A stretch of 64,000 bases of DNA from Chloroflexota bacterium (GCA_046045415.1 JBJOLT010000018.1:15986-79985), one strand, 5' to 3'; shown: positions 1,944 through 16,760, counted from the first letter of the stretch. Notes: a model not told the origin generated them from the sequence alone. Numbers and translations are program-made.

Positions 1944-3428
1944 ATGACGACGCGAGCCGCCGATCCGGCGTCGCTCACCTTCCGGACCCGCGCCTTCATC
2001 GGCGGGGAGTTCACGGACGCCGCGAGCGGCCGTCGCTTCACCGTGGAGAACCCGGCGACCGGCAGGCGGATCGCCGAGGTCGCCGAGTGCGACGCCGGCG
2101 ACGTCGATCGCGCCGTCGCGGTCGCGCGCGCCGCCGCCCCGGGCTGGGCCGCGACCTCGCCCGCCGACCGGAAGGCGATCCTCGTCCGGTTCGCCGCCCT
2201 CCTCGACGCGCACGTCGAGGAGCTCGCGCTCACCGAGAGCCTCGATGCCGGGAAGCCGATCTCCGACACCCGCGCCCTCGACATCCCCGACTCGGCGGCG
2301 ACGATCCGCTGGCACGCCGAGGCGATCGACAAGCTCTACGGCGAGGTGGGGCCGACCGGTCCGGGAGCGGTCTCGATGATCGTCCGCGAGCCGGTCGGGG
2401 TCGTCGGGGCCGTCATCCCGTGGAACTACCCGCTCCAGATGGCGGCATGGAAGCTCGGGCCGATCCTCGCGACCGGGAACGCCGTCGTCATCAAGCCGGC
2501 GCAGCTCACCTCGCTCAGCCTCCTCCGCGCCGCCGAGCTCGCGGCCGAGGCCGGCGTCCCGGCGGGCGTCCTCAACGTCGTCCCGGGTCCCGGCGCCACG
2601 GTGGGGACCGCGATCGCCCGCCACCCCGGGATCGACGCCGTCGCCTTCACCGGCTCGACGGAGGTGGGACGGACCTTCCTCTCGCACGCCGCGGAGACGA
2701 ACCTGAAGCGCGTCGCGCTCGAGCTCGGCGGGAAGAGCCCCCAGATCGTCATGGCCGACGCCGGCGACCTCGACCGGGTCGCGGAGCGGGTCGCGGCGGC
2801 GATCTTCTGGAACATGGGCGAGAACTGCAGCGCCGGGAGCCGGCTCCTCGTCGACCGCCGGGTGAAGGGGGCGCTCCTCGAGCGACTCGTCGCGCACACC
2901 GAGCGCCACTGGGTCGTCGGGGACCCGCTCGACGAGGCGACCCGGATGGGGCCGCTCATCAGCGGCGGCCATCTCCAGCGGGTCCTCGGCTACGTCGAGG
3001 CGGGTCGCGCGGAGGGAGCCCGCCCGATCACCGGCGGCGGCCGCGTCCTCGAGGCGACCGGCGGCCACTTCCTCGCGCCGACGATCCTCGACGGGGCGAC
3101 GAACGCGATGCGGGTCGCGCGCGAGGAGATCTTCGGACCCGTCCTCACGGTGATCGAGTTCGACGGGGAGGCGGAGGCGATCGCGCTCGCGAACGACACC
3201 GACTACGGGCTCGCCGCCTCCCTCTACACCCGCGACGTCCGCGTCGCCCACCGGATGGCGCGGGCGATCCGGGCGGGGACGGTCGGCGTCAACTGCTACA
3301 GCGAGGGCGACCTCGCGACCCCCTTCGGCGGGTACAAGCAGTCGGGCTTCGGCGGGCACGACAAGAGCGTCCACGCGCACGACCAGTACACCGAGCTGAA
3401 GACGATCTGGCTCGACCTCGAGGGGTAG
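1944..3428 (+). CDS. NAD(P)+-dependent aldehyde dehydrogenase
   Basis: 494-aa ORF with ALDH hallmarks (FTGSTEVG, ELGGKSP, ENCSAGSRLLV catalytic Cys region, EEIFGPV). Full-length. Confidence 0.9.
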   Translation: MTTRAADPASLTFRTRAFIGGEFTDAASGRRFTVENPATGRRIAEVAECDAGDVDRAVAVARAAAPGWAATSPADRKAILVRFAALLDAHVEELALTESLDAGKPISDTRALDIPDSAATIRWHAEAIDKLYGEVGPTGPGAVSMIVREPVGVVGAVIPWNYPLQMAAWKLGPILATGNAVVIKPAQLTSLSLLRAAELAAEAGVPAGVLNVVPGPGATVGTAIARHPGIDAVAFTGSTEVGRTFLSHAAETNLKRVALELGGKSPQIVMADAGDLDRVAERVAAAIFWNMGENCSAGSRLLVDRRVKGALLERLVAHTERHWVVGDPLDEATRMGPLISGGHLQRVLGYVEAGRAEGARPITGGGRVLEATGGHFLAPTILDGATNAMRVAREEIFGPVLTVIEFDGEAEAIALANDTDYGLAASLYTRDVRVAHRMARAIRAGTVGVNCYSEGDLATPFGGYKQSGFGGHDKSVHAHDQYTELKTIWLDLEG

Positions 3429-3458
3429 CCGGACCGCGAGGGCGTCGGCTCGCGGCTA
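3425..3458. terminator. GC-rich interrupted hairpin between convergent genes (possible bidirectional terminator)
   Basis: gtagccg-gac-cgcgag [ggcgtcgg] ctcgcgg-ctac is an inverted repeat sitting exactly between the ALDH stop (3428) and the Ndt-like stop (3456). No U-tract, so weak as a classical intrinsic terminator. Confidence 0.3.
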
Positions 3459-3884
3459 CCCGCGTCGGAGCGAGGCGAGCGCGCCGAGGACCGTCGCGGC
3501 CACCGTCTCCATGTCCGCGATCGGCAGCTCGTAGCGGAGCGTCGCCGATCGGGTGAGCATCAGGTTGTACGGGTCGCCCGGCTCGCCCCACGAGCGGAAG
3601 TCGGTCCGGATCATCACGATCGGCTTCCCCTTCGCGTACGCATAGCCGACCTCCCAGCAGGTCCCCGAGTCCGGGTCCTCGCCGTCCATGATCGCGACGA
3701 GCGCCTCGGACCAGTCGACGTGGCGGACGTCGCTCTCGAAGGTCTGCTGCGGCGTCGTCGCGTCGAACTCCTGCTCCTGGGGGAGGAAGACCTCGTGGCC
3801 CGCGGCGACGAGCCGGTCCCGGAGCCGTTCGTTCCACTCCCGCTCCGCCGAGGTGAAGAGGGGACCGGCGAAGTAGATCCGCAT
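3456..3884 (-). CDS. Nucleoside 2-deoxyribosyltransferase-like protein (Ndt/DNPH1/MilB-BlsM family, PF05014)
   Basis: 142-aa product MRIYFAGPLFTSAEREWNERL...GEDPDSGTCWEVGYAYAKGKPIV matches the Ndt-like fold signature (N-terminal GPLF, DSGT.WE.GYA). Trimmed from tracked ORF 3456..4382, whose N-terminal 160 aa are Arg/Pro junk. There is a 2-nt gap to upstream ribokinase, suggesting co-transcription. Confidence 0.8.
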   Translation of the reverse strand: MRIYFAGPLFTSAEREWNERLRDRLVAAGHEVFLPQEQEFDATTPQQTFESDVRHVDWSEALVAIMDGEDPDSGTCWEVGYAYAKGKPIVMIRTDFRSWGEPGDPYNLMLTRSATLRYELPIADMETVAATVLGALASLRRG

Positions 3885-3886
3885 CG

Positions 3887-4819
3887 TCAGCTCCTGATCG
3901 AGGCAAGGAGGGCGGCCGCCGCGGCGCGATCGGCGAGCGAGCTCTGCGTCCCGTGGCGCGTGACGCTGTCCGCGGCCGACGCGCAGCCGAGCCGGGCGGC
4001 GTCGACCGGTGCGAGCCCGACGGCGAGGCCGACCGCGAAGGCACCGACGAACGCGTCGCCGGCGCCGGTCGTGTCGACGGCGGTGACCCGCGGCGCGGGG
4101 ACCCGGACGACCTCGAGCGACCCGCGGACGAGGAGCGCCGCGCCGCGCTCGCCGAGCGTCACCGCGACCGAACCCCCGGTCCGGGCGGCGAACGCCGCGA
4201 TCCGCGCGTCCTCCCCGGCCGGATCGCCGTCGAGCCTGCCGCCCCCGATCAGCTCGAACTCGTGCTCGTTCGGGACGAGCCAGTCGCTCAGGGCGAGGAG
4301 CTCCGGCTCGATCTGGGCGCCGGGCGCCGGGTTGAGGATCGTCGTCGCACCGATCGAGCGGGCGGCCCGGAAGCCGGCGCACGTCACCCGCTGCGGGACC
4401 TCGAACTGGCCGACGACGACGGCGGGGCGGAGCGTCCGGACCGCTTCCTCGGCGAGCGCGGGGGGCGTCGCGTCGTTCGCCCCCGGGACGACGATGATCC
4501 GGTTCATCCCGCTCGCGTCGACCCAGATCGGCGCGACGCCCGAGGACCCGGGGACGCGCCGGACGTACGTCGTGTCGACCCCCTGGACGCGGAGGTTCTC
4601 GAGCGTCTCGCCGCCGTACGCGTCCTCCCCGACCGCGTTGACGAGGGCGACGCGGGCGCCGAAGCGCGCTGCGGCGACCGCCTGGTTCGCGCCCTTGCCG
4701 CCGAAACCGGAGCGGAACTCACGCCCGATCAGCGTCTCGCCGGCCTCCGGGATCCGGTCGGCGTACGTGATCAGGTCGATGTTCGTGCTCCCGACCACGA
4801 CGATCGTCGGCTCGCCCAC
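3887..4819 (-). CDS. rbsK: Ribokinase
   Basis: PfkB-family motifs GGKGANQA and DTTGAGDAF. GTG start at 4819 preceded by GGAGGA. 310 aa; trimmed from ORF 3887..4990. Confidence 0.88.
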   Translation of the reverse strand: MGEPTIVVVGSTNIDLITYADRIPEAGETLIGREFRSGFGGKGANQAVAAARFGARVALVNAVGEDAYGGETLENLRVQGVDTTYVRRVPGSSGVAPIWVDASGMNRIIVVPGANDATPPALAEEAVRTLRPAVVVGQFEVPQRVTCAGFRAARSIGATTILNPAPGAQIEPELLALSDWLVPNEHEFELIGGGRLDGDPAGEDARIAAFAARTGGSVAVTLGERGAALLVRGSLEVVRVPAPRVTAVDTTGAGDAFVGAFAVGLAVGLAPVDAARLGCASAADSVTRHGTQSSLADRAAAAALLASIRS

Positions 4820-5004
4820 GCTCGCTCCTCCCGATTCCGTTCTCCGGCGAGGGGAATGGTGCCGCCTCGGCCGCCCGCGCGCACGTTGCCCGCGCACGCC
4901 GCCCGCGCACCCGCGTCGCGCGCGGCGAAGCGGAGTGCACGCCGCCCGCGTCCCCATCCCGTATCGTCTCCGTCGACGCCAGAAGGGCACGCTGAGGAGA
5001 CGCG

Positions 5005-6000
5005 ATGACGCAGAGCGCGTTCTGGGAGAGCCCGGTGATCGCCTCGACGATCCCGGTCGTGAAGGACTCGCGCTGGGTCCGGACGAACGCCGCCGCCGTC
5101 GACCGGGTCGCCGGCTGGATGGCCTACGAGGAGTTCGGCCTCCCGGACGGCGCCCAGATGTTCGACTTCGGGTCCGATCCGGACCTCCTCACCGACGTCA
5201 CGCTCTTCGTCAACTGCCTGAACTTCGCCTTCACCGACTTCGCCACGTCCCGCAAGTTCGAGCTCGAGTACCGCGGCCGGACCTGGTCCGACTCCGAGGC
5301 GATGGTCGCCGCGCTCCACCGTGCGCACGCCGCGGGCGAGCCGATCTTCACCGGCGCGTGGATGGCCGGCGTCACGAGGGCCGACCTCGAGCGGGTCTTC
5401 GCCGGTTCGATCGAGATGCCGATGCTCGACGAGCGGGTCGCGATCCTCCGCTCGGTCGGGGCGACGCTCGTCGACCGGTTCGACGGGAGCTTCCACGCCT
5501 GGGCCGCCGGCTGCGAGCCGGCGATGTACGCCGGCGGGAACGGGCTCCTGGAGCGGCTCGTCACGGACTTCCCGCGCTTCGAGGACTCGCACGTCTTCAA
5601 GGGGAGCCGCGTCCGGATCTACAAGCTCGCGCAGCTCGCGCTCTGGGGGCTCCACGCCATGTGGGTCCGCCAGGGGCGCGCCGGGATCCGCGACCTCGAC
5701 CGGATGTCCGCCTTCGCCGACTACATCGTCCCGGTCGCGCTCCGGGTGATGGGGATCTTCCAGTACGTCCCCGATCTGGAGCGGCGGATCATGGCCGGCG
5801 AGCCGATCGCGCGCGACAGCGAGGAGGAGATCGAGATCCGGGCCCACACGCTCTACGCGACGGCGCTCCTCACCGATGCCCTCAACGAGCTCCGCCCGCC
5901 GGAGCTCCGCCTCGTCATCCCGCAGGTCGACTACCGGCTCTGGAAGTCCTACCACGCGACGTTCCACCCGCATCACCTGACCGTCACGACGATGTACTGA
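5005..6000 (+). CDS. Queuosine-salvage protein, Qng1/DUF2419 family (queuosine / queuosine-5'-phosphate N-glycosylase-like)
   Basis: 331-aa product aligns block-by-block with eukaryotic QNG1 (C9orf64): LNFAFTDF, EYRGRTW, MPMLDERVAILRSVG..FDGSF, FKGSRVRIYKLAQL, AFADYIVPVALR, EEEIEIRAHTLYA. RBS GAGGAGA lies 5 nt upstream of the ATG at 5005. Divergent from rbsK. Confidence 0.8.
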   Translation: MTQSAFWESPVIASTIPVVKDSRWVRTNAAAVDRVAGWMAYEEFGLPDGAQMFDFGSDPDLLTDVTLFVNCLNFAFTDFATSRKFELEYRGRTWSDSEAMVAALHRAHAAGEPIFTGAWMAGVTRADLERVFAGSIEMPMLDERVAILRSVGATLVDRFDGSFHAWAAGCEPAMYAGGNGLLERLVTDFPRFEDSHVFKGSRVRIYKLAQLALWGLHAMWVRQGRAGIRDLDRMSAFADYIVPVALRVMGIFQYVPDLERRIMAGEPIARDSEEEIEIRAHTLYATALLTDALNELRPPELRLVIPQVDYRLWKSYHATFHPHHLTVTTMY

Positions 6001-6014
6001 GCGGGCGCCGACCC

Positions 6015-7223
6015 GTGGATCGTCCCCGCCTCGGCCCGTACCGGGAGCTCCTCGGCCACCCGGGGGCCCGGACGCTCGCGCTCTTCGGCCTCCTCGGGCG
6101 CGCCCCGATGGCGATGTTCCCCGTCGCGCTCGTCGCGGCGGCCGCGGGCGCGACGGGCGGCGGGGAGGGCTACGCGCTCGGCGGCGCGGCGGCCGGGGCG
6201 AGCGCCTTCGCCTCGGCGGTCGCCGCTCCGCCGATCGGCAGGCTCGTGGACCGGCACGGTCAGGGCGCCATCCCCCGGCTCCTCGCGCTCGTCTGCGCCG
6301 CCGCCGCGCTCGCGATCGTCGCCTCGCTCCTCGTCATCGGCGCGACCCCGCTCATCGTCCCGCTCGCGGCGATCGCCGGGGCGTCGCAGCCGGCGATCGG
6401 GACCCTCACCCGCGCCCGATGGATGGCGCTCCTCCACGGGACGCCGGCCGGCGACTCCGCCCAGGCGCTCGAGTCGATCAACGACGAGGTCTCGTTCCTC
6501 ATCGGGCCGTCGCTCGTCGCCATCCTCGCGACGGTCGGGTTCGTGGGCCTCCCGATCGTCGTCGGCTCGATCCTCCTCGTCTCGGGCGTCTTCGGGCTGA
6601 CGTCCCGCCGGAGCCTCCCGCCCCCGCCGCCCCACCCCCGCCTCGAGGGGGAGTCGCGCTGGCCCCCCTTCCCCGCGGGCCGCTCCGTCCTCCTCGCCAC
6701 CGGCCTCCTCGGGATCGCGCTCGGCTCGGTCCAGGTCGTCCAGCTCGCCTACTCCCGGTCGCTCGGCCTCGAGACGGGCGCCGCCCTCGTCTTCTTCGTC
6801 TACTCCGCGGCGAGCCTCACCGGTGCGATCGTCGTCGGGGCGATCTCGTGGCGGCAGCCGCCGCGCCGGCGGCTCGCCCTCTCGCTCCTCGTCTACGTCG
6901 CCGGCCTCCTCCCGAGCGCGCTCGTCTCCGGCTACCCCGCCTTCGTCGTCGCCTCGCTCCTCGCGGGCATCGCGATCGCGCCGACGTTCATCCAGGCGAA
7001 CGCGCTCGTCGCCGAGGCGACCCCCACCCGGTACCGGACCGGCGCGTTCGCGGTCCTCGGGTCGGCGACGATCCTCGGGATCGCCGCGGGGTCCGCGCTC
7101 ACCGGCGCCGCCGTCGACGCGCTCGGCGCGGATGCGGCGCGGTCGGTCCTCGTCCCGATGGCGGCGGCGGTCGGCCTCGCCGGCCTCCTCGTCGCCCGCT
7201 CCGGGGTCAGCCCGGGCGGCTGA
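6015..7223 (+). CDS. MFS transporter
   Basis: About 400 aa with 11-12 predicted TM helices, MFS-like charged loops, and a pre-TM1 YRELL...R.L motif. Start taken as GTG at 6015, 14 nt after the Qng1 stop; ATG at 6108 or 6114 are alternatives. The tracked ORF 3720..7223 is mostly spurious upstream. Confidence 0.72.
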   Translation: MDRPRLGPYRELLGHPGARTLALFGLLGRAPMAMFPVALVAAAAGATGGGEGYALGGAAAGASAFASAVAAPPIGRLVDRHGQGAIPRLLALVCAAAALAIVASLLVIGATPLIVPLAAIAGASQPAIGTLTRARWMALLHGTPAGDSAQALESINDEVSFLIGPSLVAILATVGFVGLPIVVGSILLVSGVFGLTSRRSLPPPPPHPRLEGESRWPPFPAGRSVLLATGLLGIALGSVQVVQLAYSRSLGLETGAALVFFVYSAASLTGAIVVGAISWRQPPRRRLALSLLVYVAGLLPSALVSGYPAFVVASLLAGIAIAPTFIQANALVAEATPTRYRTGAFAVLGSATILGIAAGSALTGAAVDALGADAARSVLVPMAAAVGLAGLLVARSGVSPGG

Positions 7224-8454
7224 GCGCGATGACGAGGTGCTCGTAGCCCCGGAACTGGAAGGTGGGGCGGCGGGCGGTCCCGGGGAGGACGTGGATCGCC
7301 TCCTCGGTCCTCGCGAGCTCGGTGAGCGTCGTCTCGAGCTCGAGCCGGGCGAGCGGGGCGCCGATGCAGAAGTGGATCCCGCCGCCGAGCGAGAGGTGGC
7401 TCGTGTCGGCGCGGGCGACGTCGAACCGGTCCGGGTCGGGGTGCTTGCGCGGATCCCGGTTCGCCGCGGCGAGGACGAGCGCGACCCGCCCGCCCTTCGG
7501 GATCTCCGTCCCGGCGATGACGACCCCGTCGTCGAGGACCCACCGCTCGAACCACTGGAGCGGCGGGTCCCAGCGGAGGACCTCCTCGATCGCGGCGCGC
7601 GGCGAGACGACGCCGTCCCGGACGAGCCGCCACTGGTCCGGGTGGGCGGCGAGCGCCGCGATCCCGTTCGACGAGGCGTTCACCGCCGCCTCGTGGCCGG
7701 CCATGAGGAGCACCATCGCGGTCGAGACGATCTGGTCGTCGGTGAGCCGCTCCCCGTCGACGGTCGCGCCGACGAGCGCGGTGAGGAGGTCGTCGCCCGG
7801 CCGGCGCCGCCGGTCGGCGACGAGCTCGAGGAGGTAGCGGCGGAAGTCGCCGGCGGCCCGGTTCGCCGTCGCCTGCTGCTCCTCGCTCGGCCCGGGCTCG
7901 TACATGCTGATCGTGTCGTCCGAGAGGCGGAGGATCGTCCAGCGGTCGCTCTCGGGGACGCCGATCAGGTCGCAGATGATCCCGAGCGAGTAGGCCTGCG
8001 CGTACGAGCCGACGAGGTCGATCGAGCCGGCCTCACGCCCCTCGTCGAGGAGGCGGACCGCCCGGTCGCGGATCGACGACCGGAGCCCCTCGACCGCCCG
8101 GGGCGTGAACGCCTCGGTCACGAGCCGGCGGAGCTTCGTGTGCTCCGGCGGCTCGAGGTTGAGGAGCTCCCACCGCTCGAACGCGTGGTAGTCGGTCCAG
8201 CGCGGGTCGCGCCACGTCGGGATCCCCGGCGAGACGCCGAGCTCCTCGGGCGTGTAGCGGTGGAGGAACGTCGTCCCGAGCCGGCGGTCGCGGAAGGCCG
8301 CGTGGACGTCCTCGTAGCGGGTCAGGTACCAGAGGTGGTCGCCCTCCGGGTGCCAGACCGGCGTCGTCTCCCGGACCCGGGCGTACGCGGGGTACGGGTC
8401 GGCGACGAAGCCGGGGTCGGCCGGGTCGAACGCAAGATCCGGCCGGACGGTCAC
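7207..8454 (-). CDS. Cytochrome P450
   Basis: 415 aa with heme-binding FxxGxHxCxG (LGGGIHFCIGAPLARLE), the EVLRWDPP (ExxR/PERF region) and the AGHEAAV I-helix. GTG start at 8454 overlaps the stop of upstream udp (GTGA). Confidence 0.9.
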   Translation of the reverse strand: MTVRPDLAFDPADPGFVADPYPAYARVRETTPVWHPEGDHLWYLTRYEDVHAAFRDRRLGTTFLHRYTPEELGVSPGIPTWRDPRWTDYHAFERWELLNLEPPEHTKLRRLVTEAFTPRAVEGLRSSIRDRAVRLLDEGREAGSIDLVGSYAQAYSLGIICDLIGVPESDRWTILRLSDDTISMYEPGPSEEQQATANRAAGDFRRYLLELVADRRRRPGDDLLTALVGATVDGERLTDDQIVSTAMVLLMAGHEAAVNASSNGIAALAAHPDQWRLVRDGVVSPRAAIEEVLRWDPPLQWFERWVLDDGVVIAGTEIPKGGRVALVLAAANRDPRKHPDPDRFDVARADTSHLSLGGGIHFCIGAPLARLELETTLTELARTEEAIHVLPGTARRPTFQFRGYEHLVIALSRPG

Positions 8455-9260
8455 CGCGCGGGAGCCGCGGCTGGGCCTCCGGTCGCCCGGTCGCGGGCGA
8501 TGAGGACCCGGAGCCCCTCGACCGCGGCGTCGATCACCGGGTCGATCGAGAAGTCCTTCATCGAGGCCTCCGCCTCCTCCCGGGTCATGTCCGGCGCGCC
8601 GGCGCAGACCATGATCCCGCCGGCGCGGACGCGCGCGATCGCGGCGACGATGAAGATCGCGGCCGCCTCCATCTCGGAGCTGACCGCGCCGCCCCGCACC
8701 CACGCCTTCCAGCGCGCCGCGAGCTCGTCGGCGATCGGCATCCGCTCCGGCTCCACCTCGCCGTAGAAGGAGTCCTTCGACTGGCTGACCCCGAGCCGCG
8801 CGAGGGCGCCGGTCCGGCGCGCCGCCTCGCGGAGCGCGTCGACGACGTCGATGTCCGCGAGCGCCGGGTACTCCATCGGGAGGTAGTGGCTCGTCGTCCC
8901 TTCGTCGCGGATCGCCGCCGTGATGATCGCCAGCTCGCCGGTCCGCATCCCCGGCTGCATCCCGCCGGACGTGCCGACGCGGATGAACGTGTCGGCTCCG
9001 CAGCGGATCAGCTCCTCGACCGCGATCGCCGCCGACGGGCAGCCGATCCCGGTGGAGGTGCACGAGACCGCCACCCCGTCGAGCTCGCCCGTCCACGTCA
9101 CGTACTCGCGGTTCCTCGCCACGAAGCGCGGGTTGTCGAAGCGCGACGCGATCCGCTCGACGCGCCCCGGGTCCCCGGGGAGGAGGACGTACCGGCCCAC
9201 GTCGCCCGGGCGGAGCGCGACGTGGTGCTGCGGCTCGCCCGTGGGCGCGGCCCAGGTCAT
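8451..9260 (-). CDS. udp: Uridine phosphorylase-like nucleoside phosphorylase (PNP/UDP family 1)
   Basis: Strong similarity to E. coli Udp: LPGDPGRVERIA, STGIGCPSAAIAVEEL, GVSQSKDSFYG, SEMEAAA. 269 aa. Confidence 0.8.
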   Translation of the reverse strand: MTWAAPTGEPQHHVALRPGDVGRYVLLPGDPGRVERIASRFDNPRFVARNREYVTWTGELDGVAVSCTSTGIGCPSAAIAVEELIRCGADTFIRVGTSGGMQPGMRTGELAIITAAIRDEGTTSHYLPMEYPALADIDVVDALREAARRTGALARLGVSQSKDSFYGEVEPERMPIADELAARWKAWVRGGAVSSEMEAAAIFIVAAIARVRAGGIMVCAGAPDMTREEAEASMKDFSIDPVIDAAVEGLRVLIARDRATGGPAAAPAR

Positions 9261-9273
9261 GCGGGCGCCGCTC

Positions 9274-10065
9274 TCAGGAGCCGAGCCGGCCGCTCGCGCG
9301 GTCGTTGCGGATGAGGACGCGGAGACCGGCGATCGCCGCGTCGATGACGCGCTCGACGTCGCCGAGCGCCTGCTCCTCGGGGGTCGGCGGCAGGTGGTCG
9401 AGGTTCTGGAAGAGGAGCATCACGCCACCCGCGCGGACGCGGAGCGTCGACGCGACGATGAAGAGCGCCGATGCCTCCATCTCCGAGGCGACCGCGCCGC
9501 CGGCCATCCACGCCTTCCACCGCTCGGCGAGCGCGTCGGCGACCGGCATCCGCTCCGGCTCGTGCTGGCCGTAGAACGAGTCCTTCGACTGCGCGACCCC
9601 CACGTGGACGCCGTAGCCCGTCGAGCGCGCGCCCTCCCGGAGGGCGAGCGTCACGTCGAGGTCCGCGACCGCGGGGAACTCGATCGGGAGGTAGTGGCGG
9701 CTCGTCCCCTCGTCGCGGATCCCGCCGGTCACGACCGCGATGTCGCCCGTCCGGATCCCCCGCTGGAGGGCGCCCGCGGTCCCGACGCGGATGAACGTGT
9801 CGACGCCGATCGCGGCCAGCTCCTCGACGGCGATCGCGGTCGACGGGCAGCCGATCCCGGTCGAGGTGCAGGAGACCGGGACGCCGTCGAGGCTCCCGGT
9901 CCACGTCACGTACTCGCGCTTCTCGGCGACGAAGCGCGGGTTCTCGAAGCGCCGCGCGATCCGCTCGACCCGGCCGGGGTCGCCCGGCAGGAGGACGTAT
10001 CGCCCGACGTCGCCCGGCCGGAGCGCGATGTGGTGCTGGCTGCCGTCGGGCTCGGTGAGGGACAT
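9274..10065 (-). CDS. udp: Uridine phosphorylase-like nucleoside phosphorylase, tandem paralogue
   Basis: 263 aa with the same motif set (LPGDPGRVERIA, STGIGCPSTAIAVEEL, GVAQSKDSFYG, SEMEASA). 13-nt gap to the downstream paralogue. Confidence 0.8.
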   Translation of the reverse strand: MSLTEPDGSQHHIALRPGDVGRYVLLPGDPGRVERIARRFENPRFVAEKREYVTWTGSLDGVPVSCTSTGIGCPSTAIAVEELAAIGVDTFIRVGTAGALQRGIRTGDIAVVTGGIRDEGTSRHYLPIEFPAVADLDVTLALREGARSTGYGVHVGVAQSKDSFYGQHEPERMPVADALAERWKAWMAGGAVASEMEASALFIVASTLRVRAGGVMLLFQNLDHLPPTPEEQALGDVERVIDAAIAGLRVLIRNDRASGRLGS

Positions 10066-10081
10066 CGCGGGTCGCCCTTTC

Positions 10082-10975
10082 TCAGACCGAGGCCATCGCC
10101 CGGATCGCGACGACGAAGACCCCGACGAAGACGACGAAGCCGACGAGGAAGATCGCGATCGCGACCTGCTCCGGGAAGACGAGGAAGGCGGAGGGATCGC
10201 GCCCCCAGTTGAAGATGCCGTAGACGAAGAGCGTCGTCATCGTCACGACCCCGATGATCCCGACGGCGACGTCGAGCGGGCCGCTCGGGACCCGCCGATA
10301 GGAGGTCTTCTGGCCGACCGACCCGAAGGCGCGCGCCTCGAGGCTGATCGCGAGCTGCTGGACGCGCTCGACGGCCCCGGCGGCGACCGGGACGAACGAC
10401 GGGATGATCGCGCCGAAGCCGGTCCCCTTCATCCCCCGCGAGCGCTGCGCCGCGATGACGAGCCCGACCTCGCGCTGGAGGACGGGGATGAGCTGGAGCG
10501 TCATCGCGATCATGAAGTTCGCGAGGTACGGGACCTTCATCCGGTGGAGCGATGCGAAGAGGTCCGACGGGTGGGTCGTCAGGAGGAGGGCGAAGCCGAT
10601 CACCTGGAAGGCGGTGACGCGGAGCAGGAGCGAGATCGCGTGCGAGAGCCCCTCGTTGTAGATGTTCAGCGGCCCGAGCTGGACCGGCGGGGTGCAGACG
10701 CCGCCGCAGATCGCCGGCGCGACACCCTGGATGACGATGATCGAGGCGTTCACCGGGATGAAGACGAGCATGATCCTCGCGAGCGGCTTCGCGATCCGCG
10801 CGCTCACGGCGACGACGATCCCGAAGAGGAGCGACATGAGGAGCGGGAGCGCCTCGTACGTCGTGAAGCAGAAGAAGGCGAACGGGATGACCCAGGCGAA
10901 CTTCGCGACCGGGTCGAGGCGATGGAGCCAGGACGACCCGCGGACGTGGGTGATCGAAAGCGTGCCGGTGTTCAT
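10082..10975 (-). CDS. ecfT: ECF transporter transmembrane (T) component, EcfT/CbiQ family
   Basis: 297-aa multi-TM protein with the conserved CbiQ-family A-R-G motif region (QRSRGMKGTGFGAI). ATG at 10975 overlaps the upstream ATPase stop (ATGA). Confidence 0.85.
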   Translation of the reverse strand: MNTGTLSITHVRGSSWLHRLDPVAKFAWVIPFAFFCFTTYEALPLLMSLLFGIVVAVSARIAKPLARIMLVFIPVNASIIVIQGVAPAICGGVCTPPVQLGPLNIYNEGLSHAISLLLRVTAFQVIGFALLLTTHPSDLFASLHRMKVPYLANFMIAMTLQLIPVLQREVGLVIAAQRSRGMKGTGFGAIIPSFVPVAAGAVERVQQLAISLEARAFGSVGQKTSYRRVPSGPLDVAVGIIGVVTMTTLFVYGIFNWGRDPSAFLVFPEQVAIAIFLVGFVVFVGVFVVAIRAMASV

Positions 10976-11802
10976 CGGGCGCTCCCCTTCCCGAGCTCGT
11001 CCGCGAGCTCCGCGACGCTGAGGGCCGCCGGCTTCCCCTTCCGGGAGGCGAGGCGGATCGAGATCTGGGTGACCTGCGGCGGGGTGAGGTGCGCGACCTT
11101 CATCACCTCGTCGTTCGCGAAGACCTCGCGGGCGGTCCCGTCGGCGAGGATCCCGGCATTCCACATGACGACGAGCCGGTCGGTGACGTCCGCGAGGAGC
11201 GGCATGTCGTGCGCGACGCAGACGATCGTCGCCCCGCGGTCGCGGAGCTTGTGGATCAGCCGGTTGATGACGGTCGTCGTCTGGTGGTCCTGCCCCGTCG
11301 TCGGCTCGTCGAGGATGAAGACCTTCGGGTGCATCGTGTAGATCGAGGCGATCCCGACGAGCTTGCGGAGCGGGAAGCTGAGCCGGTAGGGGTGGTCGGT
11401 CCGGTACTGCTTCAGGTCGAAGAACTCGAAGGCCTCCTCGACGCGGGCCTCGATCTCCTCCTTCGGGAGCCGGAGGTTCGTCGGGCCGAAGGCGAGCTCC
11501 GCCTGGACCGTCGTCGCGAAGAGCTGGTGGTTCGGGTTCTGGAAGACGTAGCCGATGCTCGACGCGAGCTGCTGGACGCTCAGCTTCGTCGCATCCTTCC
11601 CGTCCACCGTCACGGACCCCGAGGAGGGGCGGAGGAGGCCGTTGAGGAGCTTCGTCAGCGTCGTCTTCCCCGAGCCGTTCGGCCCGGCGATCCCGAGGGA
11701 CTGGCCCTCCGGGATGTCGATGCTCACGCTGTCGAGCGCGACGACGTTCCCGCGCGGGTAGACGTAGCGCGCGTCCTTGACGCTGATGATCGGGGCGCTC
11801 AT
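10972..11802 (-). CDS. ecfA: ECF transporter ATP-binding protein
   Basis: Walker A GPNGSGKTT, signature/Walker B (ILDEPTTGQD), and an EcfA-type C-terminus. ATG at 11802 overlaps the upstream ATPase stop (ATGA). Confidence 0.85.
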   Translation of the reverse strand: MSAPIISVKDARYVYPRGNVVALDSVSIDIPEGQSLGIAGPNGSGKTTLTKLLNGLLRPSSGSVTVDGKDATKLSVQQLASSIGYVFQNPNHQLFATTVQAELAFGPTNLRLPKEEIEARVEEAFEFFDLKQYRTDHPYRLSFPLRKLVGIASIYTMHPKVFILDEPTTGQDHQTTTVINRLIHKLRDRGATIVCVAHDMPLLADVTDRLVVMWNAGILADGTAREVFANDEVMKVAHLTPPQVTQISIRLASRKGKPAALSVAELADELGKGSAR

Positions 11803-12644
11803 CGGCGGGCCTCCAGCCACGTCACGGCCTCGTCCGTCGTCACCGGGAGGTTATTCGACCCCGGTCCCGCGAGCCGGAGCGCCAGCTCGGTCGCCTGCGG
11901 CGAGCGGAGGCCGATCGCGGTGAGCTCGTCGCCGCGCGAGAAGACCTCGGTCGGAGTGCCGACCATGACGATCCGGCCCTCGTGCAGGACGACGATCCGG
12001 TTCGCGAAGGTCGCGAGGACCTCGCTCTCGTGCTCGGCGACGATGACGGTCATCCCCTCGTCGCGGTTCAGCTTCCGCGCGAGCTCGAAGACCTCCTCCT
12101 TCCCGGTCGGGTCGAGGTTCGAGGTCGGCTCGTCCATGAAGAGGATCCTCGGCGACATGACGAGGACGGACGCGATCGCGAGCCGCTGCTGCTGGCCGCC
12201 CGAGAGGCCCATCGGGGAGCGCTCCTCGAAGCCGGCGAGGCCGACCTGCGCGAGCGCGTCGCTCACCCGGGGGATCATCTCCTCGGTCGGGACGCCGAGG
12301 TTCTCGAGCCCGAGAGCGACCTCCTCGGCCGCGCTCACCTGGCTCATCTGGAACTCCGGGTTGTCGAAGACGATCCCGACCCGCTTCGCCATCTCCCGGA
12401 CGGGGGTCGTCGCCGCGTCGAGCCCCTCGACCGTGACCTTCCCCTCGTAGAAGCCCATCGTCGACTGGGGGACGATCCCGTTGAGGCAGAGCCCGAGGGT
12501 CGTCTTGCCGGCGCCGTTGAGACCCATGATCCCGATGTATTCGCCGCGCTCGATCTCGAGGTTCACGTCGGTCAGCGCGGCCCGGCCGCCGGTCGCGTAC
12601 GTGAAGGTCAGCCCCTCGATCGAGATGACACGCTCACCAGGCAC
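11799..12644 (-). CDS. ecfA: ECF transporter ATP-binding protein (second ATPase)
   Basis: Walker A GLNGAGKTT, LSGGQQQRLAIA signature, Walker B LFMDEPTSNLD. GTG start at 12644 with GGAG 6 nt upstream. Confidence 0.85.
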   Translation of the reverse strand: MPGERVISIEGLTFTYATGGRAALTDVNLEIERGEYIGIMGLNGAGKTTLGLCLNGIVPQSTMGFYEGKVTVEGLDAATTPVREMAKRVGIVFDNPEFQMSQVSAAEEVALGLENLGVPTEEMIPRVSDALAQVGLAGFEERSPMGLSGGQQQRLAIASVLVMSPRILFMDEPTSNLDPTGKEEVFELARKLNRDEGMTVIVAEHESEVLATFANRIVVLHEGRIVMVGTPTEVFSRGDELTAIGLRSPQATELALRLAGPGSNNLPVTTDEAVTWLEARR

Positions 12645-12774
12645 GTGTGCTCCAACTCGTGACGCCTGCCGGGCGTCGGGGCCGTCCCCAGGGGGACGGG
12701 CCGAGAACGATACCGCCCGGCCGCGTCGTCCGACGCGACCGGGCGGTCGATTCGCTTGTCCGTGAAGCGAGCTG

Positions 12775-12993
12775 CTAGAGCTCCTTGAGCCGAAGGACCG
12801 CGATCCCCGCGAGGACCGTGAAGAGTCCGCCGAGGACGTTCATCGCCCAGAGGGTGATGTACGCGTTGTCGGGCTCGACGATGTTCACGATCGCGTTCGG
12901 GAGGAAGATCGTGAAGATCCCCATCGCGATGACGCCGACCGCGACCTGCTCCTTCGGACCGACGGTCGCGCCGCCGTTGCCGTTGCCTGCCAT
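12775..12993 (-). CDS. Small (72 aa) two-TM membrane protein of unknown function within the ECF operon
   Basis: ATG at 12993 preceded by GAGGAGAGG at 6 nt. Two hydrophobic helices. Lies 25 nt after the S-component stop and 130 nt before the ATPase. No family recognised. Confidence 0.45.
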   Translation of the reverse strand: MAGNGNGGATVGPKEQVAVGVIAMGIFTIFLPNAIVNIVEPDNAYITLWAMNVLGGLFTVLAGIAVLRLKEL

Positions 12994-13018
12994 TGGTGCC
13001 TCTCCTCAGTCTTCGGGA

Positions 13019-13714
13019 CTAGCTGCTGAGCGCCGGCGTGACGACGAAGACGCTGAGCAGGACGAGGATCACGCCGAGGACGACGCCCCCGACGATGAGC
13101 ATCAGGTTCTGCTGCCCCTCGGACTTCGGGAGCTCGATCCCGGCGGTGAGGCCGGGCGGGAGCGCGCGGAGGATCGCGAGGCCGACGAACGTGGCGATCA
13201 TCTTGTCCGCGATCGAGCCGGTGATGCCGGCGAGGAGCGAGGACGCGATGAGGCTGTTCCCCGCGGCGGCGAAGGCCGCGACGAGGGCGTCGGACGAGTG
13301 GCCGGTGGCGCCGCCGAAGACGAAGACGACGATCGGCGAGGCCATCAGCTGCACGAGGATCCCGCAGATGATGCCGAGGATGACGAGACGGGTCGCCGAG
13401 CGGCCCATCCCGAAGCTCCGGATGCCGTAGCCCCAGACGAGGGCGCCGACGACGTTGCAGAGCGCGAACGGGATCATCGTCGGGCTGATGACGAACGACG
13501 CCGCGGTGTTCGTGATGATGCCCGTGAGGGCGCCCCACCACGGGCCGAGGGCGACGGAGGCCACCATCGTCCCGATCATGTCGAGGAAGATCGGCAGCTT
13601 GAGCGTGCTGTTGATCCACCCGCCGACGATGTTCAGCGCGCCCATCGCGGGCACGAGAACCGCTACGTAGGCGACGGGTACCCGCGCCGCCTTCCCCATA
13701 CTGGCCGCCGTCAT
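13019..13714 (-). CDS. ECF transporter substrate-specific (S) component, specificity unknown
   Basis: 231-aa, 6-7 TM protein as the first gene of a dedicated S-A-A'-T module. ATG at 13714 with GGAGGAGGA about 8 nt upstream. Trimmed from ORF 13019..14077. Cannot be assigned to a named S-component family by eye. Confidence 0.6.
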   Translation of the reverse strand: MTAASMGKAARVPVAYVAVLVPAMGALNIVGGWINSTLKLPIFLDMIGTMVASVALGPWWGALTGIITNTAASFVISPTMIPFALCNVVGALVWGYGIRSFGMGRSATRLVILGIICGILVQLMASPIVVFVFGGATGHSSDALVAAFAAAGNSLIASSLLAGITGSIADKMIATFVGLAILRALPPGLTAGIELPKSEGQQNLMLIVGGVVLGVILVLLSVFVVTPALSS

Positions 13715-14069: not shown

Positions 14070-14144
14070 GCCGACATAGCTCAGCGGTAGAGCAGCTGTT
14101 TCGTAAACAGCAGGTCCTCGGTTCAAATCCGAGTGTCGGCTCCA
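14070..14144 (+). tRNA. tRNA-Thr(CGT): tRNA-Thr (anticodon CGT)
   Basis: Cloverleaf: acceptor gccgaca/tgtcggc, D-arm gctc-agcggta-gagc, anticodon loop ttCGTaa, T-arm ctcgg-ttcaaat-ccgag, encoded CCA. TAGATT -10-like hexamer 11 nt upstream. Confidence 0.9.
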
Positions 14145-15976
14145 TCCGACCGATCAACGGACCCCGGCCCAGTGCCGGGGTTCGTCGTTCCCGCCGACCG
14201 CCCGCGGACGACGAGCCGGCGGAAACCCGTCGGGATCTCGACCCCGTCGACGAGGTGCCGATCGGCGACGAGCGCGTCGCGCCCCGCGCCCGGATCGAGC
14301 TCCAGGCCGGCGGGGGCCGCCTCGAGGAGTGCGTCGAGCATGGCGCGTCCCTCGAGGCGCGCGAGCGTCGCGCCGAGGCAGGCGTGGGCCCCGATGCCGA
14401 ACGCGAGATGGCCGCGCGGGTTCGGCCGGTCGAGGCGGATCTCCGCCGGCGCCGGGAACGCCGTCGCGTCGTGGTTCGCGGAGGGGAAGTCGAGCGCGAC
14501 ATGCGGCGCGATCGCCACGGGACGCCCGTCCGGTCCGCGGTCGATCCGTTCCATGACGAGGTCGGAGGTGAGGCGGAGGACCTCCTCGACGAAGCGGTCG
14601 CGCGCGTCGATCATCCCCTCCGAGGTGCCGCGGTCGCCCGTCGCGACGAGGAGCGGGACGAGGTCGGGCCGGGCGACGAGGCCCCAGCCGAGCCCTGCGA
14701 CGAGCCCGACGACCGTGTCCCGCCCGGCGGCGAGGAGGAGGCTGAGGATCCCGGTGAGCGTCTCCCGGTCGAGCGGCGCGCCGCCGACGGGCGTTGCCGC
14801 GAGCGCGCCGAGGACGCGCCCGGCATCGCCTCGCGCGCCCCGGTCGAGGAGCTCGTCGAGGAACGCGTGGAACGGGACTCCGTCCCGGCGCCCCTCGTGG
14901 TCCCCCCAGACCGAGAGGCCGAACGAGCGGAGGCGCGGCGCGTCGGCCTCGAGGTCGAGGACCCGGGCGATCGAGCCGACGACGAACGGGAGCGCGACCC
15001 CCTCGACGAGCTCGACCGAGTCGCCGGCCGCGAGCGGGCGGAGGAGCGTCGCGGCGTCGGCGCGGATCGCCTCGCGGTGCGGTTCGAGCGCGCCGCGCGA
15101 GAGGAACGGGACGAGCGCGCCGCGGAGCCCCGTGTGCTCGGGCGGATCGGACTCGAGCGGGAGCTGGCGGTACGTGCGGACGTCCTCGTCGCCGCGGTGG
15201 GCGGACGACCAGCGGCCCCAGTCGCGGCCCGCCGCCTTCACCGCGTCGTGACCCGCGACGCGCGGCAGGGCACGGACGCGGGCGGGTCCCACCGGCGCAT
15301 CGAGGCTGCCGGTGTAGCCCGCCCTGATCTCCCCGAAGCGGACTCGCCAGGGTCGTCCGCCGCGCCGGACCCGGCGGACGTGCTCCAGGACCTCCTCGCG
15401 CATCGCCCGCCAGTAGAGCGCCGCGACGAGCGCCGCCACGAGCGCCGCGAGGGCGTCGCCGCGAAGGGCGAGCGCCGGGACGAGCAGGAGCGTCCAGCTG
15501 TCGTACGTGACGAGCCGGTCCGCGACGACGAGCCCGACGAGCGCGGCCACGAGCAGGGCCGCCGCGAGTGCGAGCGGATCGACCACGAGGAAGGTCCCGA
15601 GGATCGGCGAGACGCCGTAGCCGCCCCGGAGGCCGTGCCAGATCGGGAAGACATGCCCGACGACCGCCGCGCCTCCCGCGAGGACCCCGGCCCCCGACCC
15701 GGGGAGGAGCGACTCGAAGGCGAGCGTCGGCAGCGCCGCCTTCGCGACGTCGAGGAGTGCGACGACGACCCCCCACCGCGTCCCGAGGAGGAGCCGGGCG
15801 TTCGTCGCCGACGCCCCGCCCGAGGGGACCGCCTCCCCGCCCGACCCGAACCGGATCGTCACCCTCCGCAGGTCGACGGCCGGGGCGACGAGCCGGCCGA
15901 CGACGACCGCGGCGGAGATCGATCCGGCGAGATAGCCGACGGCGAGCGCGCCGCCGAGGAGCAGGGGGTCGCTCAT
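14123..15976 (-). CDS. PlsY-like (DUF205/G3P acyltransferase family) membrane domain fused to a cytochrome P450 domain
   Basis: Single 617-aa ORF from the internal ATG at 15976. The N-terminal ~200 aa carry degenerate PlsY motifs (SGGASATNA; LLDVAKAALP; GHVFPIWHGLRGGYGVS). The C-terminal ~390 aa carry the P450 ExxR/PxRW region and heme loop FGIGAHACLGATLARLE. No stop separates the two domains. The 3' end overlaps tRNA-Thr by 22 nt on the opposite strand. Confidence 0.7.
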   Translation of the reverse strand: MSDPLLLGGALAVGYLAGSISAAVVVGRLVAPAVDLRRVTIRFGSGGEAVPSGGASATNARLLLGTRWGVVVALLDVAKAALPTLAFESLLPGSGAGVLAGGAAVVGHVFPIWHGLRGGYGVSPILGTFLVVDPLALAAALLVAALVGLVVADRLVTYDSWTLLLVPALALRGDALAALVAALVAALYWRAMREEVLEHVRRVRRGGRPWRVRFGEIRAGYTGSLDAPVGPARVRALPRVAGHDAVKAAGRDWGRWSSAHRGDEDVRTYRQLPLESDPPEHTGLRGALVPFLSRGALEPHREAIRADAATLLRPLAAGDSVELVEGVALPFVVGSIARVLDLEADAPRLRSFGLSVWGDHEGRRDGVPFHAFLDELLDRGARGDAGRVLGALAATPVGGAPLDRETLTGILSLLLAAGRDTVVGLVAGLGWGLVARPDLVPLLVATGDRGTSEGMIDARDRFVEEVLRLTSDLVMERIDRGPDGRPVAIAPHVALDFPSANHDATAFPAPAEIRLDRPNPRGHLAFGIGAHACLGATLARLEGRAMLDALLEAAPAGLELDPGAGRDALVADRHLVDGVEIPTGFRRLVVRGRSAGTTNPGTGPGSVDRSDGADTRI

Positions 15977-16692
15977 CCTCGACCCGCGTCGCCCGCGCTC
16001 GGGTCCTCGGCGGGCGGGCGGCCGCCCATGACGAAGGTGATCTCCGCGATCCGGCCGCGCCGGTCCTTCCGTGTCGCCCGCCGATGGGCGAGGTGGCGAC
16101 GGAGCTTCGGCAGCTCGGCCCACCAGAAGACGACGTTCGCGACGACCGCCATCGCGAGGAGCGCGGGCTCACCCCGCCAGAGCGCCCACGGGATGAGGAG
16201 GAGCGGCCAGACGTCGAACGCGACGAAGGCATCGGCGACGACGAGGCCGAGGCCGAGCCCGGCGCTCGGGAGCGCGACCGTGGCGAGGGGATCGAGGACG
16301 ACGAGCCCGCCGAGGAGCGGCGAGACGCCGTAGCCGCCCCGGAAGCGGTGCCAGATCGGGAGGACGTGACCGACGACCGCGCCCGTCGCGCAGGCGGCCG
16401 CGGCGATCCCGGTCGGGTCGGCGAGCCGGAAGGCGAGCGTCGGGACGAGCGCCTTCGCGATCTCGAGCGCCGCGGTGGCGCACCCGGCGCGAGGACCGGC
16501 ACGCTCGCGGATCGCCGACGGGCCGACCCGTTCGAGGGTCATCGTCGCCCCGGCGTCGTCGACGAGATAGGTCGTCGTCTCGACGTCGCGACCCGGGAGG
16601 AACCGTCGCGCGACGAGCCGGGCGAAGGAGACCGACCCGGCGAGGTAGCCGACGAGGGCGGCGGCGACGAGGAGCGGCGCCGGGACGTCCAC
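15973..16692 (-). CDS. PlsY-like (DUF205) membrane protein, divergent paralogue
   Basis: About 239 aa with LEIAKALVPTLAF and GHVLPIWHRFRGGYGVSPLLG motifs. Motif 1 is degenerate (DDAGATMT). Its stop overlaps the ATG of the PlsY-P450 fusion (ATGA). GTG start at 16692 is uncertain; the remainder of tracked ORF 15973..17169 is Arg-rich junk. Confidence 0.6.
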   Translation of the reverse strand: MDVPAPLLVAAALVGYLAGSVSFARLVARRFLPGRDVETTTYLVDDAGATMTLERVGPSAIRERAGPRAGCATAALEIAKALVPTLAFRLADPTGIAAAACATGAVVGHVLPIWHRFRGGYGVSPLLGGLVVLDPLATVALPSAGLGLGLVVADAFVAFDVWPLLLIPWALWRGEPALLAMAVVANVVFWWAELPKLRRHLAHRRATRKDRRGRIAEITFVMGGRPPAEDPSAGDAGRG

Positions 16693-16760
16693 GTCCCCAT
16701 CGTGGCGGTCGGACCGCGTCGGGCGCAAGCCCTCCCACCCGACCGGGTAGCATCGCGTCG

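Follow-up and report, generated by a model that had tools for sequence, protein, structure and literature searches.

A stretch of 64,000 nucleotides (nt) from a Chloroflexota genome (GCA_046045415.1 JBJOLT010000018.1:15986-79985), referred to here at its full length as the window, carries between positions 3456 and 13714 an island of twelve genes, which belong to a real and widely conserved gene set that serves to take up nucleosides and split them into base and ribose. The explanation to which we give slightly better than even credence is that of a modular nucleoside-scavenging island made of two linked units, whose substrate is probably a modified nucleoside and need not be queuosine (Q). 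The first unit would consist of a PfkB-family kinase and an Ndt-like protein, encoded divergently from an N-glycosidase of the Qng1 fold and a major facilitator superfamily (MFS) permease. The second, a predicted single operon, would join an energy-coupling factor (ECF) importer (S component, small membrane protein, ATPases A and A′, and T component) to two phosphorylases and a cytochrome P450. A modified substrate is considered probable because the Qng1-like protein, one of the two uridine phosphorylase (Udp) paralogues, the S component and the P450 all fall into uncharacterized subfamilies. The evidence consists of observations on gene content, on folds, on associations that cross phyla, on the replacement of the ECF module by a Bmp/PnrA-type importer and on residue changes in the Qng1-like protein and the second phosphorylase, UdpB.

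An earlier reading of this DNA from its sequence, the original prediction, had likewise proposed one coupled island for nucleoside import and cleavage of the ribosyl-base bond, and this proposal gains weight from the recurrence of its parts, rearranged, in Chloroflexota and Actinomycetota. All the genes then listed for 3456-13714 are present, and the families assigned to them are confirmed by Pfam and NCBIfam; the source, which had been sought among Actinobacteria, is instead a Chloroflexota metagenome-assembled genome (MAG). Genes were called by frame analysis of the G+C content at the third codon position (GC3) combined with open reading frames, an approach adopted because the G+C content of the window is about 74%.

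Conservation of the gene neighbourhood

A survey centred on the Qng1 homologue, with one genome per species, gave at least 451 loci, of which the best 80 were retained with 10 kb on each side; the window proteins were mapped onto these, and genes within 10 kb were counted as neighbours. All 80 loci come from uncultured genomes, belonging to Chloroflexota (Anaerolineae, Limnocylindria and Chloroflexia), Acidimicrobiia (many of them sponge-associated), freshwater Nanopelagicales and a few others, and the counts are minimum values, as many of the contigs are short. A PfkB kinase is found near the Qng1 homologue in 57 of the 80 loci, an MFS transporter in 41, an IU-nucleoside hydrolase in 38, at least one Udp in 35, two Udp in 25 and a Bmp/PnrA-type ATP-binding cassette (ABC) importer in 27. 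P450 and Ndt-like genes are each neighbours in 23 loci, a LacI-type regulator in 21, a DeoC-like aldolase in 17, an aldehyde dehydrogenase (ALDH; 41-44% identity, beside the DeoC-like aldolase) in 17, and an ECF module of the window type in 13. The gene order of the window is reproduced in three loci (L006, L014 and L027); in L004 all parts are collinear on one strand, after a LacI regulator, and the Limnocylindria loci have them rearranged. In Actinomycetota, a Bmp/PnrA nucleoside ABC importer takes the place of the ECF module, as in locus L080, where a PnrA-like binding protein and an ABC transporter are followed by Qng1, Ndt, MFS and nucleoside hydrolase genes, and where two Udp genes, a P450, DeoC and an ALDH are also found.

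When metagenomes were scanned from the S component, 24 contigs had a complete ECF module and room beyond it. A Udp gene lies alongside in 23 of these and two in 17, compared with Qng1 in 10, a P450 in 10 and PfkB in six; the near-constant partner of the module in these contigs is the tandem Udp pair, not Qng1. The module is accompanied by PfkB alone in loci L087 and L142, and three long contigs (L089-L091) carry the S component, small protein, A, A′, T, P450 and PfkB on one strand, with neither Qng1 nor Udp within 10 kb. These associations recur from all three starting points (Qng1, the S component and the P450), so the parts are linked by selection, and as modules: PfkB with Qng1, to which the MFS gene may be added, forms one, the ECF transporter with the Udp pair forms the other, and the P450 and PfkB also join the ECF module directly. 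A chance grouping of unrelated genes is scarcely credible: it would be in keeping with the lack of any regulator, shared operator or riboswitch joining both promoter regions in the window, but it is contradicted by the repeated co-occurrence of the same families, in varied order and strand, across Chloroflexota classes and Actinomycetota and from three search starts.

The window itself combines parts of different affinity. Its ECF genes are closest to those of Limnocylindria (EcfA is 81-82% identical to those versions), its Qng1, PfkB, MFS and P450 proteins are closest to the L006 type (68, 69, 61 and 75% identity, respectively), and the G+C content falls to about 0.69 across the ECF genes (10000-13000), against about 0.74-0.77 on either side. 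The low G+C content and the different closest relatives suggest that the ECF module was exchanged, and a mosaic ancestry of this kind would imply that the combination has been selected for.

Two further features were seen in the related loci. Just upstream of the ECF module, L086 encodes a 621-amino acid (aa) PfkB-PNP_UDP_1 fusion protein (7025-8890), the PfkB part of which was missed by tblastn with the window PfkB at the required query coverage of at least 50%. In Chloroflexia MAGs (L001, L002, L086, L087 and L089-L091), genes for a CN_hydrolase, an NAD_synthase and a TP_methylase stand as a group of three immediately upstream of the ECF module, or upstream of the P450 where the module is missing, which may be simple synteny of housekeeping genes.

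The Qng1-like N-glycosidase

The plus-strand gene at 5005-6000 encodes a 331-aa protein recognized from the outset as a DUF2419/Qng1 homologue, an identification upheld by both domain (PF10343, E-value 3e-52) and fold. Its structural model (mean predicted local distance difference test score 89.8) matches the Sphaerobacter enzyme StQng1 (7U07 and 7U91) with template-modelling (TM) scores of 0.84-0.87, the set of 7U07, 7U91 and 7UGK with 0.81-0.87 and the human enzyme with 0.79-0.84, and the next matches after the Qng1 structures are DNA glycosylases with TM scores below 0.46. The PF10343 domain and the two-lobe fold of the helix-hairpin-helix (HhH) type that mark membership of the family are thus both present.

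Profile alignments to both solved enzymes served to place the residues reported by Hung et al. 2023 (PMC9881137) on the window protein. Retained are the nucleophile D239 (D231 in StQng1) and the HhH lysine K207 (K199), the ribose contacts F76 (F75) and Y240 (Y232), the aspartate and tryptophan that hold the deazaguanine ring, D309 (D298) and W313 (W302), the aliphatic lid L211 (I203) and the C-terminal tyrosine Y331, all of them invariant or nearly so in 107 sequences of the subfamily. The pocket for the queuine side chain is replaced (W48 to G49, H53 to D54, Y93 to S97 and W94 to E98), with P47 and Y310 alone kept from a pocket that in StQng1 also includes P46 and W299, whereas the human and Sphaerobacter enzymes both have Trp, Tyr and Trp at the positions of W48, Y93 and W94; W76 of StQng1 is also replaced. 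The aspartates of the proposed proton relay are lost as well, D69 being Asn and D207 Gly in the window protein, and Asn, Thr, Ser or Ala and Gly, Ser or Thr, respectively, across the subfamily; N73 (N72 in StQng1) is kept.

A search of 1.8 billion representative proteins returned 2192 relatives (1112 with E ≤1e-10), and the best 150 show three residue patterns: the canonical one of the Sphaerobacter and human enzymes, that of a large second group and that of the window protein, which we call class C. Within class C, D96, W214 and H217 are invariant in 107 of 107 sequences, H317, H323 and H324 are found in all 106 of the 107 that span those positions, and E98 is found in 82% of the 107. On these patterns, the protein is assigned to a distinct subfamily of PF10343, in which recognition of the 7-position region appears to have been rebuilt and whose members probably still act as glycosidases on a ribonucleoside or ribonucleotide of the guanine type. 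Among these invariant residues, the aspartate and the four histidines (96, 217, 317, 323 and 324), three of the histidines being C-terminal and most of the five absent from canonical enzymes, might form a phosphate- or metal-binding site.

These residues bear directly on the salvage of Q or a derivative, an explanation that we regard as unlikely. In such a scheme, the ECF transporter would import Q, PfkB would make queuosine 5′-monophosphate (Q-5′MP) or capture the ribose, the Qng1-like enzyme, perhaps together with the second phosphorylase described below, would free queuine, and the P450 would process queuine, for example to preQ1. It draws on the Qng1 fold, to which no other solved family comes close, on the conservation of the nucleophile, the ribose contacts and the guanine-edge aspartate, and on the use of ECF transporters as typical micronutrient carriers. 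A P450 could, moreover, stand in for the oxygen-sensitive radical-S-adenosylmethionine (SAM) enzyme QueL of Clostridioides difficile, which salvages Q with the ECF S component QrtT, QueK and QueL (Yuan et al. 2019, as cited in PMC11130926). StQng1 prefers Q-5′MP (PMC9881137), the kinase that makes this substrate has not yet been identified, and PfkB adjoins the Qng1-family gene in those 57 loci.

Several results argue in the other direction. The four side-chain positions W48, H53, Y93 and W94 and the relay positions D69 and D207 are replaced throughout the subfamily, the ECF module is far more often accompanied by the Udp pair than by Qng1, and the S component is best matched by the 'CD3073 family' model, whereas QrtT is CD1683 and QueT is CD2097. 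No preQ1 riboswitch was found: an Rfam E-value search of positions 1-30000 found a tRNA-Thr and two chance-level matches only. Motif searches for tgt, queA and queC gave no hit in the window, nor across 88 loci that each span up to 21 kb (about 1.5 Mb of related loci for tgt), which is weak negative evidence. According to the legend of Figure S5 of Quaiyum et al. 2024 (PMC11130926), an Acidobacteriota Qng1 homologue did not salvage Q in Escherichia coli, and a ureide-permease-type transporter beside it carried preQ0 and preQ1. Since that homologue failed, membership of the Qng1 family alone does not predict activity on Q, which suggests that other PF10343 subfamilies likewise act on something else. 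The queuosine-specific side of the original prediction is therefore not supported, given the replaced pocket and relay residues, the Udp pair as the partner of the ECF module, the best model for the S component, the lack of a preQ1 riboswitch in the region searched and, as weak evidence, the lack of tgt motifs nearby.

The two uridine phosphorylase paralogues

Two tandem minus-strand genes, udpA (9274-10065, 263 aa) and udpB (8451-9260, 269 aa), both encode PF01048 proteins and were correctly listed in the original prediction as uridine phosphorylase paralogues; they are not, however, equivalent. UdpA scores 283.4 bits against the uridine phosphorylase model TIGR01718, above its cut-off of 280.3 bits, and matches the Streptococcus pyogenes uridine phosphorylase (SpUP; 3QPB) at E 1e-83. 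Its motif, SKDSFYG-Q-H-EPERMP, reproduces K162, Q168 and H169 of SpUP, and it can be classed on this basis as a canonical uridine phosphorylase of the UP2 type. K162 and H169 are said to have been described as active-site residues of SpUP by Tran and co-workers in 2011, and the chain numbering fits. UdpB remains just under the cut-off (270.9 bits; 3QPB match, E 4e-76), and its motif, SKDSFYG-E-V-EPERMP, keeps K162 and has Glu and Val at the positions of Q168 and H169, so that both uracil-contact positions are replaced.

UdpB keeps the ribose motif SEME and is therefore probably active as a phosphorylase, with a base preference that differs from that of UdpA. The division into a 'Q-type' (UdpA) and an 'E-type' (UdpB) paralogue is general: every readable tandem pair, in Chloroflexota and Actinomycetota, combines one protein with Gln-His and one with Glu followed by Val, Ile or Leu. 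In Limnocylindria, the E-type gene and the P450 remain with the ECF module, and the Q-type gene lies with PfkB and a nucleoside hydrolase.

The ECF transporter

The importer genes are arranged on the minus strand as an S component (13019-13714, 231 aa; PF12822, a weak match), a small two-helix membrane protein (12775-12993, 72 aa) without a Pfam or NCBIfam match, the ATPases EcfA (11799-12644, 276-281 aa depending on the choice of GTG start; PF00005, 5e-28) and EcfA′ (10972-11802, 276 aa; PF00005, 4e-29), and EcfT (10082-10975, 297 aa; PF02361, 7e-24). With a six-helix S fold, a T component and two ATPases in one operon with overlapping coding sequences, it has the features of a dedicated group I ECF transporter. 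A gene for a 66-78-aa protein also follows the S component in most related loci examined (L004, L086, L087, L088, L089-L091 and Limnocylindria loci).

The best NCBIfam model for the S component is NF045596, 'CD3073 family ECF S component', with 113 bits against a cut-off of 180, and a profile of its family matches FolT at 5e-5 only. Its structural model, a six-helix core with an extra C-terminal helix, resembles the FolT, RibU and ThiT folds with probability 1.00 (TMt 0.62-0.70) at 12-17% identity. Assignment to one of these solved vitamin families, the outcome named in the original prediction as telling against it, was rejected, the similarity to FolT, RibU and ThiT being only remote. The same prediction had left the choice between a Qrt-like and a novel nucleoside S component. 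The results are consistent with a novel nucleoside S component, and the best model is that of neither QrtT nor QueT. The supplement of Quaiyum et al. 2024 (PMC11130926) equates QrtT with CD1683 and QueT with CD2097. Relative to the QrtT type, the PF12822 match is weak and a single specific model, the 'CD3073 family', is matched, with a score under its cut-off. No match to PF06177, the QueT family (IPR010387), is listed for the S component or for 18 relatives.

The genomic partners of the module suggest instead that its substrate is a nucleoside, because two nucleoside phosphorylase genes constantly adjoin it and because a PnrA-like nucleoside ABC importer substitutes for it in Actinomycetota. 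The literature searched contained no ECF importer linked to nucleoside phosphorylases, no ECF S component for nucleosides or uridine and nothing on CD3073.

The cytochrome P450

The terminal gene of the minus-strand operon (7207-8454, 415 aa; PF00067, 6e-23) encodes a P450 with the heme-thiolate motif LGGGIHFCIG, which is assigned to CYP107 and whose closest solved structure is Streptomyces avermitilis CYP107P2 (8YHN; full length, E 1e-104). Its I-helix motif, AGHEAA, has Ala after Glu, where most P450s have Thr, and the same is true of CYP107P2. The P450 EryF likewise has Ala after the I-helix Glu, and there a substrate hydroxyl takes over the role of Thr. The link of the P450 to the system, already part of the original prediction, is strengthened on two counts. 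Its GTG start codon and the stop codon of udpB overlap, so that the two genes are predicted to be translationally coupled, and its orthologues, in more than 120 sequence clusters, are 70-78% identical and lie beside the ECF module in three of the three contexts sampled, in the order ECF-P450-PfkB. Five loci without a P450 (L088, L117, L119, L129 and L147) have one or two genes of the URO-D family (PF01208) after the ECF-Udp-Udp-MFS unit, at 13476-14549 in L088 and at 16552-18896 in L119. The P450 and URO-D families often act on small substituents, so this exchange hints at a substituted base.

In another explanation, the island would serve bulk canonical nucleosides only, with uridine cleaved by Udp, guanosine or GMP by the Qng1-like enzyme, ribose captured by ribokinase and the P450 a mere passenger. 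We judge this fairly unlikely. It is in accord with the active-site motif of UdpA, which is that of a characterized uridine phosphorylase, with a PfkB that matches ribokinases alone among solved structures, and with the Actinomycetota versions, which have the standard Bmp importer, IU-nucleoside hydrolases, DeoC and ALDH; in the Qng1-like enzyme, the guanine-edge aspartate is kept, and the gained D96 and E98 could protonate N7 of an ordinary purine. A passenger is nevertheless not expected to have its start codon within the stop of udpB, to be conserved above Qng1 (70-78% against 58-68% identity) or to be flanked by EcfT and PfkB, as it is in three independent contexts without Udp or Qng1. Nor does a purely canonical role account for the retention, in every lineage, of another phosphorylase in which neither uracil contact is kept, or for the URO-D-family gene that follows the module in the five P450-less loci.

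At the other extreme is an oxygen-dependent route by which a purine or pyrimidine bearing a substituent would be recovered from a modified nucleoside of RNA origin, the CYP107-type P450 removing or oxidizing the substituent; this we hold to be quite unlikely. Its sharpest version would be an aerobic counterpart of the QrtT-QueK-QueL pathway of C. difficile, in which the ECF transporter would import Q, PfkB would be a queuosine kinase, the class C Qng1 would release queuine and the P450 would N-dealkylate queuine to preQ1. In a parallel version, a methyl group would be removed from a methylated nucleoside, a task that would fall to the URO-D proteins in P450-less, possibly anaerobic lineages.

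The PfkB kinase, the Ndt-like protein and the MFS transporter

Divergent from the Qng1-like gene, as first noted, are a kinase gene (3887-4819, minus strand, 310 aa; PF00294, 8e-58) and an Ndt-like gene (3456-3884, minus strand, 142 aa; PF05014, 1.2e-25), and both family assignments stand. PfkB scores 278 bits against the ribokinase model TIGR02152, below the cut-off of 299.65, and is considered ribokinase-like because the next-best family reaches no more than 88 bits and its closest solved relatives are all ribokinases (E 5e-49). Where Qng1 is absent, PfkB lies on the same strand as the ECF genes, and in loci with no glycosidase nearby it directly follows the ECF module. For this reason, it might phosphorylate the imported compound itself and have a nucleoside-kinase role. 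The Ndt-like protein resembles small type-II nucleoside deoxyribosyltransferases (NDTs), the best solved relatives being 7M5H and 6EVS, and keeps their Glu-containing motif. The MFS gene (6015-7223, plus strand, 402 aa; PF07690, 2.5e-20) had been described as a flank of the group; with a start 14 nt beyond the end of the Qng1-like gene, it is better seen as directly downstream of that gene.

A model for the island

Taken together, these parts can be arranged into a scavenging route. The ECF transporter would import a ribonucleoside, on which UdpA (Q-type) would act by phosphorolysis if it is uridine, and UdpB (E-type) if it carries a different or substituted base. The P450 would oxidize or dealkylate a substituent, either of the imported compound or of the base once released, and the Qng1-like enzyme would hydrolyse a guanine-type nucleoside or 5′-nucleotide whose 7-position region is unlike that of queuosine. 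PfkB would phosphorylate the released ribose, or the nucleoside itself to give a 5′-phosphate substrate, and the MFS transporter may move a base or nucleoside across the membrane. UdpA and the ribokinase-like kinase would thus provide canonical steps, to which relatives may add nucleoside hydrolases, DeoC and ALDH, while the class C Qng1, the E-type Udp and the P450 would be specialized enzymes and the ECF module a dedicated high-affinity importer. It is the presence of these specialized enzymes and of the ECF importer that makes a modified nucleoside the probable substrate.

A number of points weigh against this model. The substrates and the sequence of reactions are all inferred, and the mapping of the Qng1 pocket is a sequence alignment at 30-35% identity. 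No gene for a P450 redox partner lies within the island, and neither a regulator nor a shared operator joins both promoter regions in the window. PfkB and UdpA look ordinary, so the island could serve canonical nucleosides only. Conversely, ECF importers usually carry micronutrients, with which a vitamin-like compound such as queuosine fits better than bulk nucleosides do. Queuosine as the substrate is possible, but not favoured.

Operon structure and flanking regions

The minus-strand genes from the S component to the P450 are tightly packed, and overlapping start and stop codons at three junctions (UdpB/P450, with GTGA, EcfA′/EcfT and EcfA/EcfA′) bear out the polycistron foreseen in the original prediction; on this arrangement, they are predicted to form one operon. 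The only long spacer, of 130 nt, lies between the small-protein gene and ecfA (12645-12774, minus strand) and contains a 16-bp G+C hairpin with a minimum free energy of -88.3 kcal/mol, against -72.4 for shuffled sequences (z -3.6). A possible role of the spacer is to let the S component be expressed at a level different from that of the rest of the ECF module. The Ndt-like gene starts 2 nt past the PfkB stop codon, and the PfkB and Qng1-like genes are divergently transcribed from the intergenic region at 4820-5004, presumed by its position to hold their promoters. This region contains no palindrome, no sigma-70 consensus and no motif in common with the region upstream of the ECF operon. As the two promoter regions have no common word of at least 9 nt and one short palindrome only, a shared operator was rejected. 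Scans for sigma-70 promoters and intrinsic terminators found no sites, a result that is uninformative at 74% G+C and in Chloroflexota. The deposited locus tags RL338_368 (Qng1), RL338_370 (P450) and RL338_377 (S component) fit a ten-gene run from Qng1 to S, and NCBI names all three products 'hypothetical protein'.

Upstream of the ECF operon, the island is bounded by a tRNA-Thr(CGU) gene (14070-14144, plus strand; Rfam 72.6 bits, also found by ARAGORN). At the other end lies an aldehyde dehydrogenase gene (1944-3428, plus strand; PF00171, E 1e-169), convergent with the Ndt-like gene, which may be an accessory of the island. A minus-strand gene at 14123-15976 encodes a PlsY-like (PF02660) N-terminal membrane domain fused to a C-terminal P450-like domain that retains the heme motif FGIGAHACLG, and a second PlsY-like gene follows (15973-16986, minus strand). 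The fusion was considered as a member of the island and rejected, as related loci give cross-hits to the P450 domain only and the PlsY part was not found there. Past both PlsY-like genes, a second ALDH-like gene (16839-18515, plus strand), identified from its translation only, means that genes of the ALDH family bracket the island.

Significance

The cluster is common in abundant, poorly cultured aquatic bacteria, including freshwater Limnocylindria, acI/Nanopelagicales and sponge-associated Acidimicrobiia, in which the recycling of breakdown products of nucleic acids bears on carbon and nitrogen turnover. It offers a series of testable enzyme problems: a glycosidase of the Qng1 fold with a rebuilt pocket, a second phosphorylase that is conserved and has altered base contacts, an S component whose partners point to nucleosides and a P450 tied to nucleoside genes, which is highly conserved even in lineages reported to have very small genomes. 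As a kinase gene adjoins the Qng1-family gene in most genomes, PfkB is a concrete candidate for the step that makes the 5′-phosphate for enzymes of the Qng1 type. The annotation 'queuosine salvage protein' may be wrong for the class C subfamily.

Comparison with known systems

The literature searched gave no account of a subfamily split in PF10343, of a Q- and E-type phosphorylase pair, of a link between ECF and Udp genes or of a P450 association, and nothing relevant on a queuosine kinase, on DUF2419 with a ribokinase or on queuosine in Nanopelagicales. The statement in the original prediction that no system of this composition had been described is nearly right, its exception being Table S3 of Quaiyum et al. 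2024, which lists a Candidatus Aquidulcis neighbourhood that shares most genes of the island (a P450, one PNP_UDP, an ECF module, Qng1 and MFS). The transporter is given there only as a candidate 'ABC transporter', and the S component and small protein are unannotated.

Among the closest systems is the QueL-QrtT-QueK cluster of C. difficile for indirect queuine salvage (CD1682-CD1684; Yuan et al. 2019, as cited in PMC11130926), which likewise combines genes for an ECF S component, for an N-glycosidase acting on nucleosides and for an enzyme that processes the base. The glycosidase in C. difficile is of the IU-nucleoside-hydrolase family and that of the island of PF10343; the base-processing enzyme is a radical-SAM lyase in the former and a P450 in the latter; and the S component is QrtT in the former, whereas the best model for that of the island is the 'CD3073 family'. 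Beyond these counterparts, the island has two phosphorylases and a kinase, and it encodes A, A′ and T components of its own.

With the Qng1/QNG1 enzymes of Hung et al. 2023 (PMC9881137), the window protein has in common the fold, the length, the catalytic Asp and Lys, the ribose-stacking Phe and Tyr, the base-holding Asp and Trp and the C-terminal Tyr. It is, however, only 30-35% identical to the solved enzymes, its side-chain pocket and the relay positions D69 and D207 are changed, and class C adds the invariant D96, W214, H217, H317, H323 and H324. Compared with the UP2-type enzyme of S. pyogenes (3QPB), UdpA has the same K-Q-H motif, whereas UdpB has K-E-V and represents a conserved separate lineage. 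The P450 is closest in structure to CYP107P2 (8YHN), with which it has the I-helix Ala in common and which is itself an orphan P450 with no physiological substrate assigned.

Like the group I transporters of the CbiMNQO type, the ECF module has S, A, A′ and T components in one predicted operon and a small two-helix protein after the S component. The S component and the small protein have no sequence relation to CbiM or CbiN, and the S component, unlike that of CbiMNQO, has the vitamin-type six-helix fold with one extra helix. The Bmp/PnrA operons of Actinomycetota, including Acidimicrobiia, contain a Qng1-like gene among those for LacI, Bmp, an ATPase, two permeases, a nucleoside hydrolase and PfkB; in Chloroflexota, an importer of the ECF type stands in the place of the Bmp/PnrA importer.

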